From Escherichia coli (GTDB lineage Bacteria; Pseudomonadota; Gammaproteobacteria; Enterobacterales; Enterobacteriaceae): a stretch of DNA of 6,464 bases. Made by a program: the position numbers and the translations under genes. A model generated the notes under the pieces. It did no database searches. It saw nothing but the letters and a program-made list of their open reading frames with translations, and was not told the DNA's origin. Of this stretch, positions 49-5,643 are shown piece after piece. Position 1 is the first letter of the stretch; the number at the start of each line of letters is the position of its first letter. The DNA lies in NCBI RefSeq assembly GCF_003334255.1, contig NZ_QOWU01000101.1; one strand, written 5' to 3'.

Positions 49-106
49 AAAAAGGGTGGCAGAGCAGTCACGGAGTAAAACTGATACCGCCAAACGTCAC
101 CAGAAA
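49..106 (-). ncRNA. dicF: DicF small RNA (ftsZ-targeting sRNA of Qin-type prophages), mature 53 nt at 54-106 plus U-tract at 49-53
   Basis: The reverse complement of 54-106 reads TTTCTGGTGACGTTTGGCGGTATCAGTTTTACTCCGTGACTGCTCTGCCACCC, followed by TTTTT (plus-strand A5 at 49-53). This matches the E. coli DicF sequence as I recall it, with about one mismatch; the match is from memory, not from a search. It lies in the expected orientation, co-directional with the repressor-proximal leftward operon. Confidence 0.8.
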
Positions 107-679: not shown

Positions 680-1093
680 TTATGGCAATTTCTTCAGTAG
701 CTCTCCCGAAAGTTGAGTAGTTTTAATTGTTGTTTTGAAATAATCACTGCTTTCACATTTGAGTGATTTCATGGCAATCCAAATGCGGGCCTCTGTGCCT
801 GCATTTGGTTCCAGTTGCTGTAGACGTTTTGCGTCTTCCAAAAGTAAGGCGATAATGTGTTTCAGCTTCTCATCATTTGCTTGATTCTTGTTTTCAGTCG
901 AATTCTGTCCGCCGAATAGGCGCTTCTCTTCATACAGACCTATAAAGGCACGACGCACGTTACCGGATATAGTATCGATGGTTTCCTTTTCTACAGTACT
1001 CAGGTCAAGAGTCGCCAGTTGAGAGCGAACCACATTAGATGCCATTTCCTGGAATGGTACTGGTAAATCTTTAAATTCCATCGTCAACCTCAT
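680..1093 (-). CDS. Hypothetical 137-aa protein, second gene of the repressor-proximal leftward operon; no family recognised
   Basis: Minus-strand ORF whose ATG (1093-1091) overlaps the TGA of the upstream YdfA-like gene (TGATG), suggesting translational coupling. Alternative start at ATG 1081. The predicted protein is helical and charged. Confidence 0.6.
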   Translation of the reverse strand: MRLTMEFKDLPVPFQEMASNVVRSQLATLDLSTVEKETIDTISGNVRRAFIGLYEEKRLFGGQNSTENKNQANDEKLKHIIALLLEDAKRLQQLEPNAGTEARIWIAMKSLKCESSDYFKTTIKTTQLSGELLKKLP

Positions 1094-1245
1094 CAGTCGG
1101 AGTTTCTTGCTAACCAGCGATGCGCGCCAGCTTCGGTTTTAAACGTTTTACTTTTGGTATACGTCATCGCGGTAAACGTGCCGTCCTGGTTGGGAAACAC
1201 GCCGCATACCAGAGATTCGCTGTTGCCAAGATCGATAGTATCCAT
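1093..1245 (-). CDS. ydfA: YdfA-like small protein (DUF1391 family), 50 aa
   Basis: The internal ATG at 1245 is preceded by GAGGT with a 5-nt spacer. The product MDTIDLGNSESLVCGVFPNQDGTFTAMTYTKSKTFKTEAGAHRWLARNSD matches my recollection of E. coli YdfA, the first gene after dicA in Qin. The 114-aa upstream extension in the ORF track has no SD and starts inside a hairpin. Confidence 0.6.
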   Translation of the reverse strand: MDTIDLGNSESLVCGVFPNQDGTFTAMTYTKSKTFKTEAGAHRWLARNSD

Positions 1246-1430
1246 GTTGACCTCATTTCCCCTTAACGCCGGGGGAGCGGAACAAAAACCTGCTGCGCTG
1301 TTATACAAAGTGTTCCCGCCGTCATGTTCATACGCCTCGGGCTGGCTACTTAACCCCTGACCACTGCCGGGTAACTCGAAGTATTGCCCTGCATTCTGTG
1401 GGGCGGGGTGGGTTGGTATGAAAAGAAGGA

Positions 1431-1467
1431 TACCCATAGGTATTTAAAAAGTAAATACCTATGGGTA
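1431..1467. promoter_or_regulatory. Perfect inverted repeat (15-bp arms, 7-bp spacer) downstream of the repressor gene; candidate OL-type operator overlapping an early-left promoter, possibly also a terminator for the repressor transcript
   Basis: TACCCATAGGTATTT (1431-1445) and AAATACCTATGGGTA (1453-1467) are exact reverse complements. On the minus strand, TTTACC-17 bp-TAAATA fits -35/-10 spacing within and around the repeat. The half-site CCATAGGTA recurs at 1926-1934 at the repressor start. Confidence 0.45.
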
Positions 1468-1509
1468 AATTTTTGCGGTGTCTTAACTGGTGACTAGTTG
1501 TTTGGTGAG

Positions 1510-1929
1510 CTATGATGCGTTTTGTGCTTTCTTTTTACGGATTTCTTCGTAGATCATATTGTAATACTGTTTTTTCTCTTCAAGAGTTTTTAATAATTTA
1601 TCCGCTTCACTTTCTGGCAGTTCGTCTAAGAGATCTAAAAAAATACGTTGTCGTGGCGTTAGAACCCTTGTTTCATAACTGGAGGCTGTGTTCGTTGATG
1701 ATGAAACGATACCATCCATCCATCCCCGGGGTAACCCAAAGGACTCTTCGATAATCTCCACCATATCATCAGCGATCCGTTTTTTTCCCTTTTTCCCCTC
1801 TGGGTACAACATTCTTGATACATAAGAAGGCTCGCGCCCGATCTTTCTGGCCACGTTAACCGCTTTACCATCGCATTTCTCATCACGAATTTTGATGAGT
1901 TGCTGTCGTCTAAATTCATATTTGTCCAT
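1510..1929 (-). CDS. Prophage repressor, 139 aa: CI-type HTH N-terminal domain with a DicA-like C-terminal region
   Basis: Complete ORF, divergent from the Cro-like gene. HTH segment AVNVARKIGREPSYVSRMLYPEG. The C-terminal LTPRQRIFLDLLDELPESEADKLL resembles the DicA C-terminus (LSPKELELLELFNALPESEQ as recalled). The ATG at 1929 sits 6 nt after a TATTAT -10 candidate, consistent with a leaderless mRNA. Confidence 0.85.
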   Translation of the reverse strand: MDKYEFRRQQLIKIRDEKCDGKAVNVARKIGREPSYVSRMLYPEGKKGKKRIADDMVEIIEESFGLPRGWMDGIVSSSTNTASSYETRVLTPRQRIFLDLLDELPESEADKLLKTLEEKKQYYNMIYEEIRKKKAQNAS

Positions 1930-2029
1930 AGGTAAATAATAGATGCGATTACCGCAAGGTAAACAACCTGTGGGTATTGACTTTTGTTTACCTGCGGGTA
2001 TTCTTTGCTGTGTTTACTAAGGAGTAGCT
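1930..2029. promoter_or_regulatory. Divergent promoter/operator region between the repressor and Cro-like genes
   Basis: CCGCAAGGTAAACAA (1952-1966) and the reverse complement of 1985-1999 (CCCGCAGGTAAACAA) form an inverted pair. A rightward TTGACT (1977-1982), 16-bp spacer and TATTCT precede the SD TAAGGAG (2018-2024) and ATG 2030. A leftward TATTAT sits immediately upstream of the repressor ATG. Confidence 0.55.
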
Positions 2030-2311
2030 ATGGAAGAATTAAGAATATTTCTCAATTCTCTTTCGTCAGATGAACAGCGTATGTTTGCATGCGAGTGTGA
2101 TACCAGCATCGGTTATCTAAGAAAAGCATTGAGTAAAGGTCAAGTGTTAGGGGCATCGTTATGTGTCCTTATTGAGCGAGCCAGTAATGGTGAAGTTACA
2201 CGTCAGCAACTAAGGCCTTTTGATTGGATGAATATTTGGCCCGAGCTGGAAGATACCAAAACGTTAACACAACCACTTTCTAGGAGCTTGATTCATGAAA
2301 ATCAAGCATGA
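2030..2311 (+). CDS. Cro-like transcriptional regulator, YdaS family, 93 aa
   Basis: SD TAAGGAG 5 nt upstream of the ATG. Divergent from the repressor. The segment ASLCVLIERASNGEVTRQQLRPFDW resembles Rac YdaS as recalled (CPAIERATRGEVLCEELRPDIDW). Confidence 0.8.
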   Translation: MEELRIFLNSLSSDEQRMFACECDTSIGYLRKALSKGQVLGASLCVLIERASNGEVTRQQLRPFDWMNIWPELEDTKTLTQPLSRSLIHENQA

Positions 2312-2720
2312 ACACATCCGCATGGCGATGAATGTCTGGGCGCATCCGGACGGCGAAAAAGTACCGGCTGCGAAAATTACCAAAGCGTATTTCGAGCTGG
2401 GAATGACGTTCCCGGAACTGTACGACGACAGCCATCCGGAAGCCCTGGCTCGTAATACCCAGAAAATTTTCCGTTGGCTGGATAAAGACACCCCTGATGC
2501 TGTTGAAAAAATTCAGGCTCTGTTACCGGCGATCGAAAAGGCAATGCCGCCTCTGCTGGTGGCCCGTATGCGCAGTCACAGCTCTGAATATTACCGTGAG
2601 ATCGTCGAACGGAGGGATCGGCTGGTGAAAGATGTGGATGATTTTGTCGCAGCGGCGATCGCCTGGGGCACCCTGACTAACAGTGGTGGTCAGCCTGGTA
2701 ATGCTGTTGTCGTGCATTGA
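2295..2720 (+). CDS. ydaT: YdaT-family protein (CII-like regulator, also annotated as toxin YdaT), 141 aa
   Basis: Starts MKIKHEHI and ends VVH, with an internal KIQALLPAIEKA motif, as in Rac YdaT from memory. GGAG lies 8 nt upstream. The start overlaps the end of the Cro-like gene by 17 bp. Confidence 0.8.
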   Translation: MKIKHEHIRMAMNVWAHPDGEKVPAAKITKAYFELGMTFPELYDDSHPEALARNTQKIFRWLDKDTPDAVEKIQALLPAIEKAMPPLLVARMRSHSSEYYREIVERRDRLVKDVDDFVAAAIAWGTLTNSGGQPGNAVVVH

Positions 2721-2788
2721 CCAACAATATTCATGCCGGATTTCTTCCGGATGTTCGAGGGTAAAGTTCGGTATCAGATGAGGTGAGT

Positions 2789-3826
2789 ATGGCTAATGCC
2801 TGGCTCAGATTGTGGCATGACATGCCAAATGATCCCAAATGGCGAACCATTGCCAGGGTCTCAGGACAGCCAATCGCAACAGTGATGGCGGTGTATATCC
2901 ACCTTCTGGTGAGTGCGTCACGAAATGTCACGACATGTCACGGCGTGTCACTACGTGGTCACATTGATGTCACGACGGAAGATTTAGCAAGTGCGCTTGA
3001 TGTGACGGAAGACGTAATTGATTCAATTTTGCATGCAATGCAGGGGCGGGTTCTGGATGGTGACCTTATTTCCGGATGGGAAAAACGTCAGGTGCTGAAA
3101 GAGGACAATGGTAACGTTTCGCAAACGGCAAAATCCCCGGCAGAGCGCAAGAGAGCGCAGCGGGAGCGCGAAAAGCTGCGGAAATATGATGCTGATTGTC
3201 ACGATGAGTCACGACGTGTCACGCATCTGTCACGACAAGTCACGACAGATAAAGATACAGATACAGAATTAAACCCCACACATAACGCGCGCATGCGCGA
3301 GAGTGCTCCAACCGGTGAGTCGCATGGTGCGCCGTTGCAGACAGCCGAACCTGAATACCTGGACGGCCTGAGCGAACCGATCGGGAAATTTTCGATGACT
3401 ACTGTCTGGCAGCCGTCGTCGGATTTTCGACAACGGGCAGCAGTGTGGGGTATGGCTCTGCCTGAGCCGGAATTTACACCTGCTGAGCTTGCCGCATTCC
3501 GGGATTACTGGATGGCGGAGGGGAAGGTTTTCACACAGGTTCAGTGGGAGCAGAAATTTGCCCGCCACGTGCAGCACGTCAGGACACAGGTAAAACCAGT
3601 CAGCAAGGGGGTAAGCCATGCAGCATCAGGTGGCACGGCATCACGGGCAGTTCAGGAAATCCGGGCAGCACGCGAACAGTGGGAACGAGACAACGGATTT
3701 ATCAGCAACGGAAATGGCCTGGAAGCTGTGGGAGCTTATGGGGGAGGTGTATTCGAACCGCTGGACTCAGAAGAACGGGGCCGCACCTTCGAAGCTCTGG
3801 ATTGCCCAGATTGGCACGATGACTGA
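2789..3826 (+). CDS. Phage replication initiator (lambda O-like, iteron-binding replisome organiser)
   Basis: Long ORF immediately upstream of the P-like gene. Two arrays of GTCACG iterons are embedded in its coding sequence, as in lambda O/ori. ATG 2789 is preceded by GAGG; the GTG at 2783 is an alternative start. Confidence 0.8.
   Translation: MANAWLRLWHDMPNDPKWRTIARVSGQPIATVMAVYIHLLVSASRNVTTCHGVSLRGHIDVTTEDLASALDVTEDVIDSILHAMQGRVLDGDLISGWEKRQVLKEDNGNVSQTAKSPAERKRAQREREKLRKYDADCHDESRRVTHLSRQVTTDKDTDTELNPTHNARMRESAPTGESHGAPLQTAEPEYLDGLSEPIGKFSMTTVWQPSSDFRQRAAVWGMALPEPEFTPAELAAFRDYWMAEGKVFTQVQWEQKFARHVQHVRTQVKPVSKGVSHAASGGTASRAVQEIRAAREQWERDNGFISNGNGLEAVGAYGGGVFEPLDSEERGRTFEALDCPDWHDD
2915..2978. 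repeat. Iteron array 1: six direct repeats of (t)GTCACGAc at 10-11 bp spacing
   Basis: GTCAC begins at 2917, 2927, 2937, 2947, 2958 and 2969, i.e. one helical turn apart. Confidence 0.7.
3196..3248. repeat. Iteron array 2: five direct repeats of (t)GTCACGAC at 10-11 bp spacing, followed by an AT-rich segment
   Basis: GTCAC begins at 3198, 3208, 3218, 3229 and 3239. The AT-rich stretch AGATAAAGATACAGATACAGAATTAAA (3247-3273) and the 12-bp palindrome CGCGCATGCGCG (3288-3299) follow. Confidence 0.7.
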
Positions 3827-4280
3827 ACAGCAAATCCGGCTGGTCTGCCGTCAGTGCATGGACCGCTGCCGGGCGGGTGAAACGTGGCCCCCAGACCTGG
3901 CTGAGTTTGTTGCACTGATTTCGGAGAGTGGGGCAAATCCATTTGGTCTTACGGTGGATGCAGTGATGGAAGAGTACCGGCGCTGGCGCAATGAATCCTG
4001 GCGATACGACGGGAGTGATAAATACCCGTGGCCACAGCCTGTGCTGTACCACATCTGCCTCGAAATGCGTACCAGAGGGATTGAGCGCCAGATGACGCAG
4101 GGTGAGTTAAAACGACTTGCGGAACGGCAACTGACGAAATGGGCAAAGCATGTTGGTAACGGGATGAGTGTTCCGCCAGTGCGACGACAACTGGAAGGGG
4201 CGAAACACCCGCAAGGGCCAACGCCAATTGAACGGCTGAAACAGGAATACGAACGCCGGAAGGCAGCTGGTTTTATTTGA
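3714..4280 (+). CDS. Replication protein P-like (DnaB helicase loader); start ambiguous
   Basis: The C-terminal two thirds resemble lambda P as recalled (YPW motif; PPDLAEFVAL versus PSPGQFVAW; TMTEQQ versus TTMEQV). The P-like frame is open back to 3618. Candidate starts: ATG 3618 (SD AAGGGGG, giving 220 aa), ATG 3714, ATG 3738, and ATG 3819 (ATGACTGA overlap with the O stop). The stop is at 4278-4280. Confidence 0.75.
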   Translation: MAWKLWELMGEVYSNRWTQKNGAAPSKLWIAQIGTMTEQQIRLVCRQCMDRCRAGETWPPDLAEFVALISESGANPFGLTVDAVMEEYRRWRNESWRYDGSDKYPWPQPVLYHICLEMRTRGIERQMTQGELKRLAERQLTKWAKHVGNGMSVPPVRRQLEGAKHPQGPTPIERLKQEYERRKAAGFI

Positions 4281-5030: not shown

Positions 5031-5344
5031 GTGGCTGGAAGAAGTGGCGCTGGGCTGAAATCCTGATACTCCGGCAGTGTGCGGGAACGATGAGAGTCGA
5101 AAGCATCGGTTATCTGATTGGTCGTAGTGAGTCAGCCGTCAGGACGAAAGCGCGGGAACTGGGTATCAGCATGATTTTACGGGGTGATTTTCACCCGTCG
5201 GCAAAATATTCACAGCGTGATATTGAGCTGGCGCGGCAACTGCATCAGCGTGGCGTACCCCGACGGGAAATTGCCGAAAAGTTTGGGATGAAGTTGGGCG
5301 CAGTGAATAACTACGTTTATTTCGACAGGAGGGTTCAGGAGTGA
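5027..5344 (+). CDS. Small protein with two HTH-like segments, about 105 aa; function unknown
   Basis: GTG 5027 overlaps the upstream TGA (5028-5030). ATG 5090 is an alternative start giving 84 aa. HTH-like segments [21 protein letters not shown] and [19 protein letters not shown]. Confidence 0.6.
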
Positions 5345-5643
5345 GGGTGAGGATTTATATCGCCGGTCCGATGACGGGATATGAAAATTTCAACCGCGAG
5401 GCGTTTCACAGGGCGGAAGATGCGCTGAAACGGGAAGGGCATACCGTTTTAAACCCGGCAGTACTTCCGGACGGGCTGACTCAACCACACTACATGGATA
5501 TTTGCATGGCAATGCTCCGTTGCGTGGATGCGGTTTACATGCTGAAAGGCTGGCAGCAGTCGGCAGGTGCAAGGGCTGAGCTGGCACTGGCGGAGAAACT
5601 GGGCCATGCGGTGATTTTTCAGGAGGTGGGCAGTGAATATTGA
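5341..5643 (+). CDS. DUF4406 protein, nucleoside 2-deoxyribosyltransferase-like fold, 100 aa
   Basis: N-terminal RIYIAGPMTGY and the later SAGARAELALA glutamate motif are typical of the NDT/Rcl-like fold. AGGAGGG at 5327-5333 precedes GTG 5341, which overlaps the upstream TGA. GTG 5347 is an alternative start. Confidence 0.75.
   Translation: MRVRIYIAGPMTGYENFNREAFHRAEDALKREGHTVLNPAVLPDGLTQPHYMDICMAMLRCVDAVYMLKGWQQSAGARAELALAEKLGHAVIFQEVGSEY

Follow-up and report, generated by a model that had tools for sequence, protein, structure and literature searches.

YdaS- and YdaT-family genes in the cro/cII position of a lambdoid Escherichia coli prophage

Layout of the locus and identity of the two genes

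The window analyzed here is a stretch of 6,464 nucleotides from Escherichia coli (contig NZ_QOWU01000101.1). It carries a YdaS-family gene and a ydaT gene that overlap on the rightward strand, a repressor gene that diverges from them, and genes for an O-like replication initiator and a P-like helicase loader (Table 1). We are highly confident that positions 1431-4280 are the immunity and replication region of a lambdoid E. coli prophage, with the YdaS-like gene as the Cro analogue and YdaT as the CII analogue. The gene order, the family membership of the products, the near-identity of YdaT to a solved protein with a footprinted operator, and the exact copy of that operator across the ydaT start all lead to this reading. 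A sequence-only reading of the same DNA had put the YdaS/YdaT pair in the cro/cII slot 5′ of O and P, had noted an overlap of 17 base pairs (bp) between the two genes, and had favored a Cro/CII-like regulatory role. The gene layout and the PHROG O-like and P-like matches agree with the first point, the overlap is found at 2295-2311, and the regulatory role is borne out by the sequence together with the literature on the CP-933P and Rac homologues.

Positions 1400-2800 are 100% identical to the chromosome of E. coli JE86-ST05, and the RefSeq annotation of that strain has both genes at the same coordinates (2030-2311 and 2295-2720). The JE86-ST05 copy is a lambdoid prophage adjoining yccA, with the order int, xis-like, exonuclease (exo), dicB, DUF1391, repressor, cro, ydaT, DnaT-like O, P and, later, Q and tRNAs. 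In this annotation the cro-slot gene is named "transcriptional regulator", ydaT "toxin YdaT family protein", and P "replication protein P".

YdaT matches PDB entries 8bt1 (7e-83) and 3c4r (2e-76) over its full length, and it also matches the PHROG 163 profile "CII-like transcriptional activator" (E = 5.3e-47) and the Pfam model YdaT_toxin (PF06254, E = 1e-10). Compared with the crystallized CP-933P protein (8bt1), 117 of the 118 positions are the same over residues 1-118, the sole change in residues 2-118 being I73 for M73; the differing part is residues 119-141, and overall identity is about 91%. The residues named in the structural study of CP-933P YdaT (PMC9986795), Arg60 in the recognition helix and I103, L110, V111, V114, F117, V118, and A121 in the helical bundle, are all found in the translation. 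YdaT has, in addition to the profile match, the POU-like helix-turn-helix with Arg60 and the alpha-6 core of its family, as well as a cognate repeat near its own start. Pfam Phage_CII was absent from the YdaT scan, which gave PF06254 plus insignificant matches only, and none of the NCBIfam models matched YdaS or YdaT. YdaT acts like CII but falls outside the lambda CII family.

For the cro-slot protein, the match to Pfam YdaS_toxin (PF15943) is partial (residues 36-66 only, E = 1.4e-5), while PHROG 35 is matched at 8.4e-22 and the solved "Cro" proteins PDB 8co2/8c7k at E of about 1e-9. Profile and solved-Cro similarity together place it in the YdaS/Cro-like helix-turn-helix family (PF15943, COG4197), at 35% identity to the CP-933P-type YdaS. 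As expected of this family, the gene is the first of a rightward operon and is divergent from the repressor gene, with repeated candidate operators between the two.

The functions of the homologues have been established by experiment. The YdaT of CP-933P, a cryptic prophage of E. coli O157:H7, is a tetramer with a POU-like helix-turn-helix that leaves a footprint on 5′-TTGATT-N6-AATCAA-3′ at the ydaS/ydaT border (PMC9986795), and it switches on the otherwise silent leftward PRE933P reporter (PMC8630535). Rac YdaT binds ATGATTCATGAAAATCAA across its own ATG, with leftward expression up to 29-fold higher, and the CP-933P protein cross-activates the Rac promoter (PMC11879457). In these homologues, YdaS and the repressor bind common operators between divergent promoters, and the YdaT-driven leftward promoter feeds the repressor operon. 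The activation of a leftward establishment promoter that the sequence-only reading had raised has already been shown for both CP-933P (PMC8630535) and Rac (PMC11879457).

The identification of the pair is correct, and it is not new, the Cro/CII question having been answered on the homologues. The Cro/CII reading was argued from gene context by Jobling in 2018 (PMC5917428), experimental confirmation came for CP-933P in 2021 (Jurenas, PMC8630535) and 2023 (Prolic-Kalinsek, PMC9986795) and for Rac in 2025 (Wons, PMC11879457), and the K-12 RefSeq label for ydaT is "DNA binding transcriptional activator". The Pfam/PGAP "toxin" names still distort automated toxin-antitoxin counts in E. coli prophages. 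Only by-products of the present analysis are fresh: where the cassette begins and ends, why the genes overlap, which operators are specific to this immunity type, and what geometry is predicted for the promoter, the last giving a testable location for the YdaT-dependent establishment promoter here as well as in Rac and CP-933P.

Table 1. Features of the window in order of position.
Feature	Position	Strand	Remarks
DicF antisense small RNA gene	54..105	-	full-length; leftward operon; Rfam RF00039, 70.1 bits (gathering threshold 48), E = 2e-14
Candidate OL, perfect palindrome with 16-bp arms	1431..1467	.	two TACC-N4-GGTA sites, 1431-1442 and 1456-1467
Repressor gene, CI analogue	1510..1929	-	139 amino acids; PHROG 5736, 6e-70
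Candidate PRM	1936..1963	-	-35 TTTACC (1963..1958), 16-nucleotide spacer, -10 TATTAT (1941..1936)
Candidate OR operators TACCGCAAGGTA, AACCTGTGGGTA, TACCTGCGGGTA	1950-1961, 1965-1976, 1989-2000	.	TACC-N4-GGTA motif search
Candidate PR	1977..2004	+	TTGACT, 16-nucleotide spacer, TATTCT; promoter scan, 9/12 matches
YdaS-family Cro analogue	2030..2311	+	93 amino acids; ATG; AAGGAG 7 nucleotides upstream
Predicted extended -10 of PRE analogue, TGT-TAACGT	2261..2269	-	21 nucleotides past the box; hexamer 2261-2266
YdaT box (OM operator) TTGATTcatgaaAATCAA	2288..2305	.	exact match; ydaT start codon in spacer
ydaT, CII functional analogue	2295..2720	+	141 amino acids; ATG; AGGAG 8 nucleotides upstream
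YdaT domains			helix-turn-helix (POU-like), alpha-6 tetramerization helix, variable C-terminal tail (residues 119-141)
O-like replication initiator (DnaT-like)	2789..3826	+	PHROG 1408/15931; RefSeq
Iteron-like repeats inside the O-like gene	2916-2976, 3197-3246	+	two clusters; about 5-6 repeats, TGTCACGAC and variants; 10-11 bp spacing
P-like helicase loader	3819..4280	+	PHROG 109, 4.5e-54; RefSeq "replication protein P"

The YdaT box and its cassette

The footprinted operator TTGATTCATGAAAATCAA (TTGATT-N6-AATCAA) was found without mismatch at 2288-2305, with the ATG of ydaT (2295) inside its spacer. Footprints on this YdaT box are available for both CP-933P (PMC9986795) and Rac (PMC11879457). 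The box is present in all 166 loci examined, where only the first two bases and the last base vary, and box-like sites are found at the equivalent place in five distant homologue loci. A search of a 25-kb stretch of the prophage (L001) gave one exact site only; three sites with two mismatches were within chance and none lay near int or Q. PI- or PaQ-like YdaT boxes near int/xis or Q were rejected on the basis of this single exact site.

The surroundings of the box were compared in 85 loci in which ydaT is at least 91% identical. The overlap between the cro-slot gene and ydaT is 4 bp in 52 of these loci and 17 bp in 29, and it is absent in four; in K-12 Rac, a 22-bp gap is found in its place. 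The upstream genes fall into at least 10 types with less than 60% identity to each other, and the box is always present. For example, the identical CP-933P YdaT is found behind YdaS together with PaaR2 and PaaA2/ParE2 (L002, L003), and also behind a P22_Cro-family gene accompanied by a 238-amino-acid S24 CI repressor (L004, L005). In an alignment of the junctions, homology between the mosaics sets in at the left edge of the box, to within one or two bases. Two kinds of C-terminus are found on the upstream proteins, "...DS" with a 4-bp ATGA overlap and "...(L/V/M/G)IHENQ(A/T)" with a 17-bp overlap. From the junction alignment and these C-terminal patterns, the last seven codons of the YdaS-like gene (LIHENQA) come from the box cassette.

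These comparisons suggest that the box and ydaT codons 1-118 behave as a portable cassette that is not tied to YdaS. The overlap type tracks the reading frame, the cro-slot gene being read into the cassette until the first stop, which is met either at the ATGA or 17 bp in. Hence, the 17-bp overlap is a frame accident at a mosaic junction, without toxin-antitoxin meaning. The disordered C-terminal tail of YdaT (residues 119-141; window 2649-2720) exists in two versions, and these co-segregate perfectly with the type of the downstream replication initiator (O), in 45 versus 39 loci. This co-segregation places a second mosaic junction at about codon 118 of ydaT.

YdaT homologues in the cII slot were also found in a phage collection, in mEp237, HK639, HK225, Pectobacterium phage ZF40, Tritos, and Klebsiella phages, and several of them are annotated as cII. 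In the Klebsiella phage ST405-OXA48phi1.2 (L167, genes at 1290-1517 and 1501-1926), a 54%-identical YdaT has the same 17-bp cro/cII overlap and a degenerate box, GTGAATCATGAAAATCAG. In mEp237 (L168, 1468-1485) and HK639 (L169, 1447-1464), the box-like repeat is found some 16 codons into the annotated CII-like open reading frame and opens with an in-frame ATG (ATGATAAATCGCAATCAA and ATGATTTACCAGAATCGC). These two genes may have been annotated with starts too far upstream; otherwise, the site is an internal one.

Operators and promoters of the predicted switch

The repressor is 23% identical to the protein at the PaaR2 position of L002 (BLASTP, E = 8e-9), which suggests a distant relative of CP-933P PaaR2, and it is without similarity to RacR. 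No S24 peptidase domain match was obtained for it in the libraries searched, and a weak match to the DicA C-terminus was below the curated cut-off. The motif TACC-N4-GGTA occurs six times at no more than one mismatch, a number that was reached in none of 200 shuffles. Exact copies are found three to four times in 15/15 loci with this Cro type and in 0/151 loci with other types. Since the motif is confined to this Cro type, we infer that its sites are the immunity-specific operators OR and OL. The candidate OR sites overlap the -35 of PRM and both the -35 and the -10 of PR, and the position of the candidate PR agrees with that of PR933P (PMC8630535).

The candidate OL directly follows the repressor gene. 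On the minus strand, the palindrome folds into a hairpin of -22.5 kcal/mol (z = -7.6) that is followed by the U-rich sequence UCCUUCUUUU, so this element may serve as OL and also terminate the repressor transcript. A weak PL candidate was seen by eye over the palindrome (TTTACC at 1469..1464, a 16-nucleotide spacer, and TTAAAT at 1447..1442). On the other side of the repressor gene, the predicted start of PRM is about 7 nucleotides past the -10, at 1929, which is the A of the repressor ATG. The sequence before this ATG contains no Shine-Dalgarno element. Because the PRM -10 ends 7 nucleotides before the ATG and a Shine-Dalgarno is missing there, the repressor mRNA is probably leaderless, as was shown for cI and PaaR2 (PMC8630535).

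For the leftward promoter that responds to YdaT, a predicted location emerged from the comparison of flanks. A TAnnnT hexamer lies 20-22 nucleotides leftward of the box in 11/11 dissimilar left-flank types (166 loci, including Rac of K-12), and no other position leftward of the box has more than one TAnnnT match among the 11 types. The TAnnnT background is 1.65% per position, giving a naive P of about 4e-15 for 11/11, with some types maybe related and the independent number nearer nine. The same hexamer was found at 20-21 nucleotides from the box-like repeat in five of five distant loci, namely two Klebsiella phages (54% and 33% protein identity), mEp237, HK639, and ZF40, bringing the overall count at 20-22 nucleotides to 16/16 left-flank types. 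By eye, weak hexamers with 3-4/6 matches to TATAAT (TAACGT, TATCCT, TAGCCT, TAAGTT, and TACCTT) are found in all five flank types that have a TGn extension, and the strongest hexamers (TACAAT, as in CP-933P, TATGAT, as in Rac at 20 nucleotides from the box, and TATCAT) are without this extension. Such compensation between TGn and a weak hexamer is the pattern expected of a promoter. Moreover, the YdaT-responsive PRE933P reporter fragment is only 120 bp long (18 nucleotides right of the box, the box, and 84 nucleotides to its left), and a box-proximal promoter fits within it.

With confidence slightly above even, we propose from these alignments that the YdaT-activated promoter is box-proximal, with its -10 fixed 20-22 nucleotides leftward and the box in a class II-like position, and that every left module supplies its own -10. 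The last point follows from recombination joining the modules at the edge of the box. In the window, the predicted start is near 2254, placing the box at about -51 to -34 with its center near -42.5.

Three other explanations of this region were rejected. A PRE using the box half-site TTGATT (2305..2300) as the -35 and TAGAAA (2282..2277) as the -10 fails since neither the CP-933P-type nor the P22-Cro-type flanks preserve this -10. A PRE wholly to the right of the box, inside ydaT, would have only the 18 nucleotides present there in the reporter, and no convincing hexamers are found. The conserved element 20-22 nucleotides from the box is not a stop codon either, as the plus strand has TAG/TAA in some flanks and TAC in others, and TAnnnT fits all of them.

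If the proposed location is right, a box-proximal PRE would revise the Rac model, in which activation is exerted from about 190 bp away (PracR4). The box with ydaT codons 1-118 would then be a portable cassette for establishment throughout the PHROG 163 family, with the viable phages HK639, mEp237, and ZF40 among its carriers.

Combining these elements, the switch would work as follows. PR would drive ydaS-ydaT-O-P, and the repressor and YdaS would compete at the TACC-N4-GGTA operators (OR at 1950-2000 and OL at 1431-1467). Once accumulated, YdaT would bind its box and recruit RNA polymerase to the weak extended -10 promoter 21 nucleotides further left, in an arrangement resembling class II activation. 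The resulting transcript would be antisense to ydaS and would run into the repressor gene, and for this reason the outcome would be more repressor and less Cro, as with lambda PRE.

Several points weigh against this scheme or parts of it. Published positions for the YdaT-dependent promoter disagree: in the Rac study, activation is attributed to PracR4 at a distance of about 190 bp from the box (PMC11879457), the CP-933P structure paper puts PRE933P upstream of, or overlapping, the box (PMC9986795), and the box-proximal -10 is a third reading. In the Rac activation assay, the box alone was mutated, as far as the text describes (PMC11879457). The hexamer TAACGT matches the -10 consensus at only three of six positions, and a repressor ATG without a Shine-Dalgarno raises a question about the translation of a PRE-type transcript. 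YdaS and the repressor are only 35% and 23% identical to the characterized CP-933P YdaS and PaaR2, respectively, and the operator assignment comes from motif statistics. Finally, several pseudogenes are found further right in the prophage, and the phage that this switch controlled may therefore have lost its viability.

Alternative explanations, neighboring genes and known systems

The last point leads to a possible, though rather unlikely, alternative, in which a decaying prophage has left these genes intact as relics, kept for superinfection immunity or by hitch-hiking, without a working lysis-lysogeny decision. Several downstream genes are indeed frameshifted or truncated, and the prophages in which the homologues were studied, CP-933P and Rac, are cryptic. 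However, the repressor, operators, cro, box, ydaT, O, P, and iterons are all intact in the window, and hundreds of genomes have the switch module at 94-100% identity. The 1.4-kb immunity query gave at least a partial match in 3065 of 5426 complete E. coli genomes and was mostly present in 813. The circuit of the cryptic CP-933P is, moreover, still bistable and functional (PMC8630535). In any case, this alternative bears on the state of the prophage and not on the identity of the genes.

It is far less probable that YdaT is mainly a repressor or roadblock on its own start codon, limiting rightward ydaT-O-P transcription and replication rather than activating leftward. The box does cover the ydaT ribosome-binding spacer and ATG, the structural paper terms YdaT a "repressor" equivalent (PMC9986795), and a further site of Rac YdaT, between racR and ydaS, covers the ydaS promoter (PMC11879457). 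Yet the Rac ydaT-reporter "did not change much" with or without an intact box, against the up to 29-fold effect on leftward expression (PMC11879457), and CP-933P YdaT activated PRE933P (PMC8630535). The conserved leftward -10 at a fixed spacing is also what is expected of an activator site and not of a roadblock.

The idea that YdaS/YdaT form a type II toxin-antitoxin pair, with YdaT as the toxin and YdaS as neutralizer and operon autoregulator, is already largely refuted and merits hardly any credence: the Pfam names YdaS_toxin and YdaT_toxin, the RefSeq label "toxin YdaT family protein", the small, adjacent, and overlapping genes, and the killing of cells by overexpressed Rac YdaT (31% identical; PMC5700377, PMC11879457) speak for it, but YdaT aligns over its full length to a solved helix-turn-helix transcription factor without a toxin fold (PMC9986795) and has no other significant Pfam match, the partner is not conserved, with P22_Cro among the 10 or more unrelated genes that precede the same ydaT, the overlap varies (4 bp, 17 bp, or none), and the pair occupies the cro/cII slot of viable phages. 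Such partner swapping is expected for a cII-type module in mosaic lambdoid phages and not for a cognate, co-evolving toxin-antitoxin pair. The further statement of the sequence-only reading, that YdaT-type proteins are toxic when overexpressed, stands for Rac YdaT, whose toxicity was tied by the authors to a transcriptional effect on the host gene rcsA (PMC11879457). It does not extend to the close relative from CP-933P, for which no toxicity was detected (PMC8630535) and which does not activate the rcsA promoter (PMC11879457). The authors of PMC8630535 likewise judged that YdaS-YdaT is not a toxin-antitoxin module.

Additional features were found on both sides of the switch. The iteron clusters within the O-like gene are, by analogy with the lambda ori within O, probably the replication origin. 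A terminator scan gave no terminator between ydaT and O. In the early-right region, a DUF4406/nucleoside 2-deoxyribosyltransferase-like gene (5341-5643, plus strand; PHROG 355, 4.7e-48) comes after DUF1627 and a small helix-turn-helix gene. On the left, DicF was the only Rfam match at E<=1, and dicB lies further left in the prophage than DicF; an oop-like antisense RNA or another known RNA element around YdaS/YdaT was rejected, as Rfam yields DicF only. A 114-amino-acid open reading frame at 1093-1437 (minus strand) is in the list of open reading frames, of which RefSeq keeps the C-terminal 50 amino acids (1093-1245) as DUF1391 (YdaF-like, PHROG 751). The RefSeq start leaves about 264 bp of non-coding DNA up to the repressor gene, and the OL palindrome is located within it.

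Among known systems, the locus resembles a type II toxin-antitoxin module, as in the original RASTA prediction and the Pfam names, in that two small genes overlap in one operon and the first of them encodes a helix-turn-helix protein. It differs in lacking a toxin fold and a conserved partner, in having a non-toxic close homologue, and in that the function is established as transcription regulation.

As for lambda Cro and CII, the two genes have the same positions in a rightward early operon before O and P. By analogy with CII, YdaT would be a tetrameric helix-turn-helix activator of a weak leftward promoter at the cro/cII border, antisense to cro, and the cI-type repressor is, as in lambda, probably leaderless. 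YdaT, with its 222 symmetry, recognizes an inverted repeat, in contrast to the direct repeat TTGC-N6-TTGC that is read by CII. No PI or PaQ analogue is evident, given that no box was found near int or Q, and cro and ydaT are not separated by a tR1-type gap.

Rac of K-12 (PMC11879457) has the same family in the same slot, with a near-identical box across the ydaT ATG (ATGATT... in Rac versus TTGATT... here), and its YdaT activates leftward transcription towards the repressor gene. By contrast, Rac YdaT is 31% identical, RacR is unrelated to the repressor of the window, and the 22-bp gap of Rac replaces the overlap. In addition to its own box, Rac YdaT occupies host rcsA and the racR-ydaS intergenic region, and the protein is toxic, in contrast to what is reported of the CP-933P type.

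CP-933P (PMC8630535, PMC9986795, 8bt1) has operators of the GTTTAGTAA-type repeat in place of TACC-N4-GGTA, a cro-ydaT overlap of 4 bp in place of 17 bp, and a paaA2-parE2 toxin-antitoxin after the repressor that is missing here, and the YdaT tail (119-141) and the O/P module of the window are of another type. However, both prophages have the order repressor, cro, ydaT, and replication gene, the repressor is probably leaderless here too, and the operator TTGATTCATGAAAATCAA is identical and in the same place.

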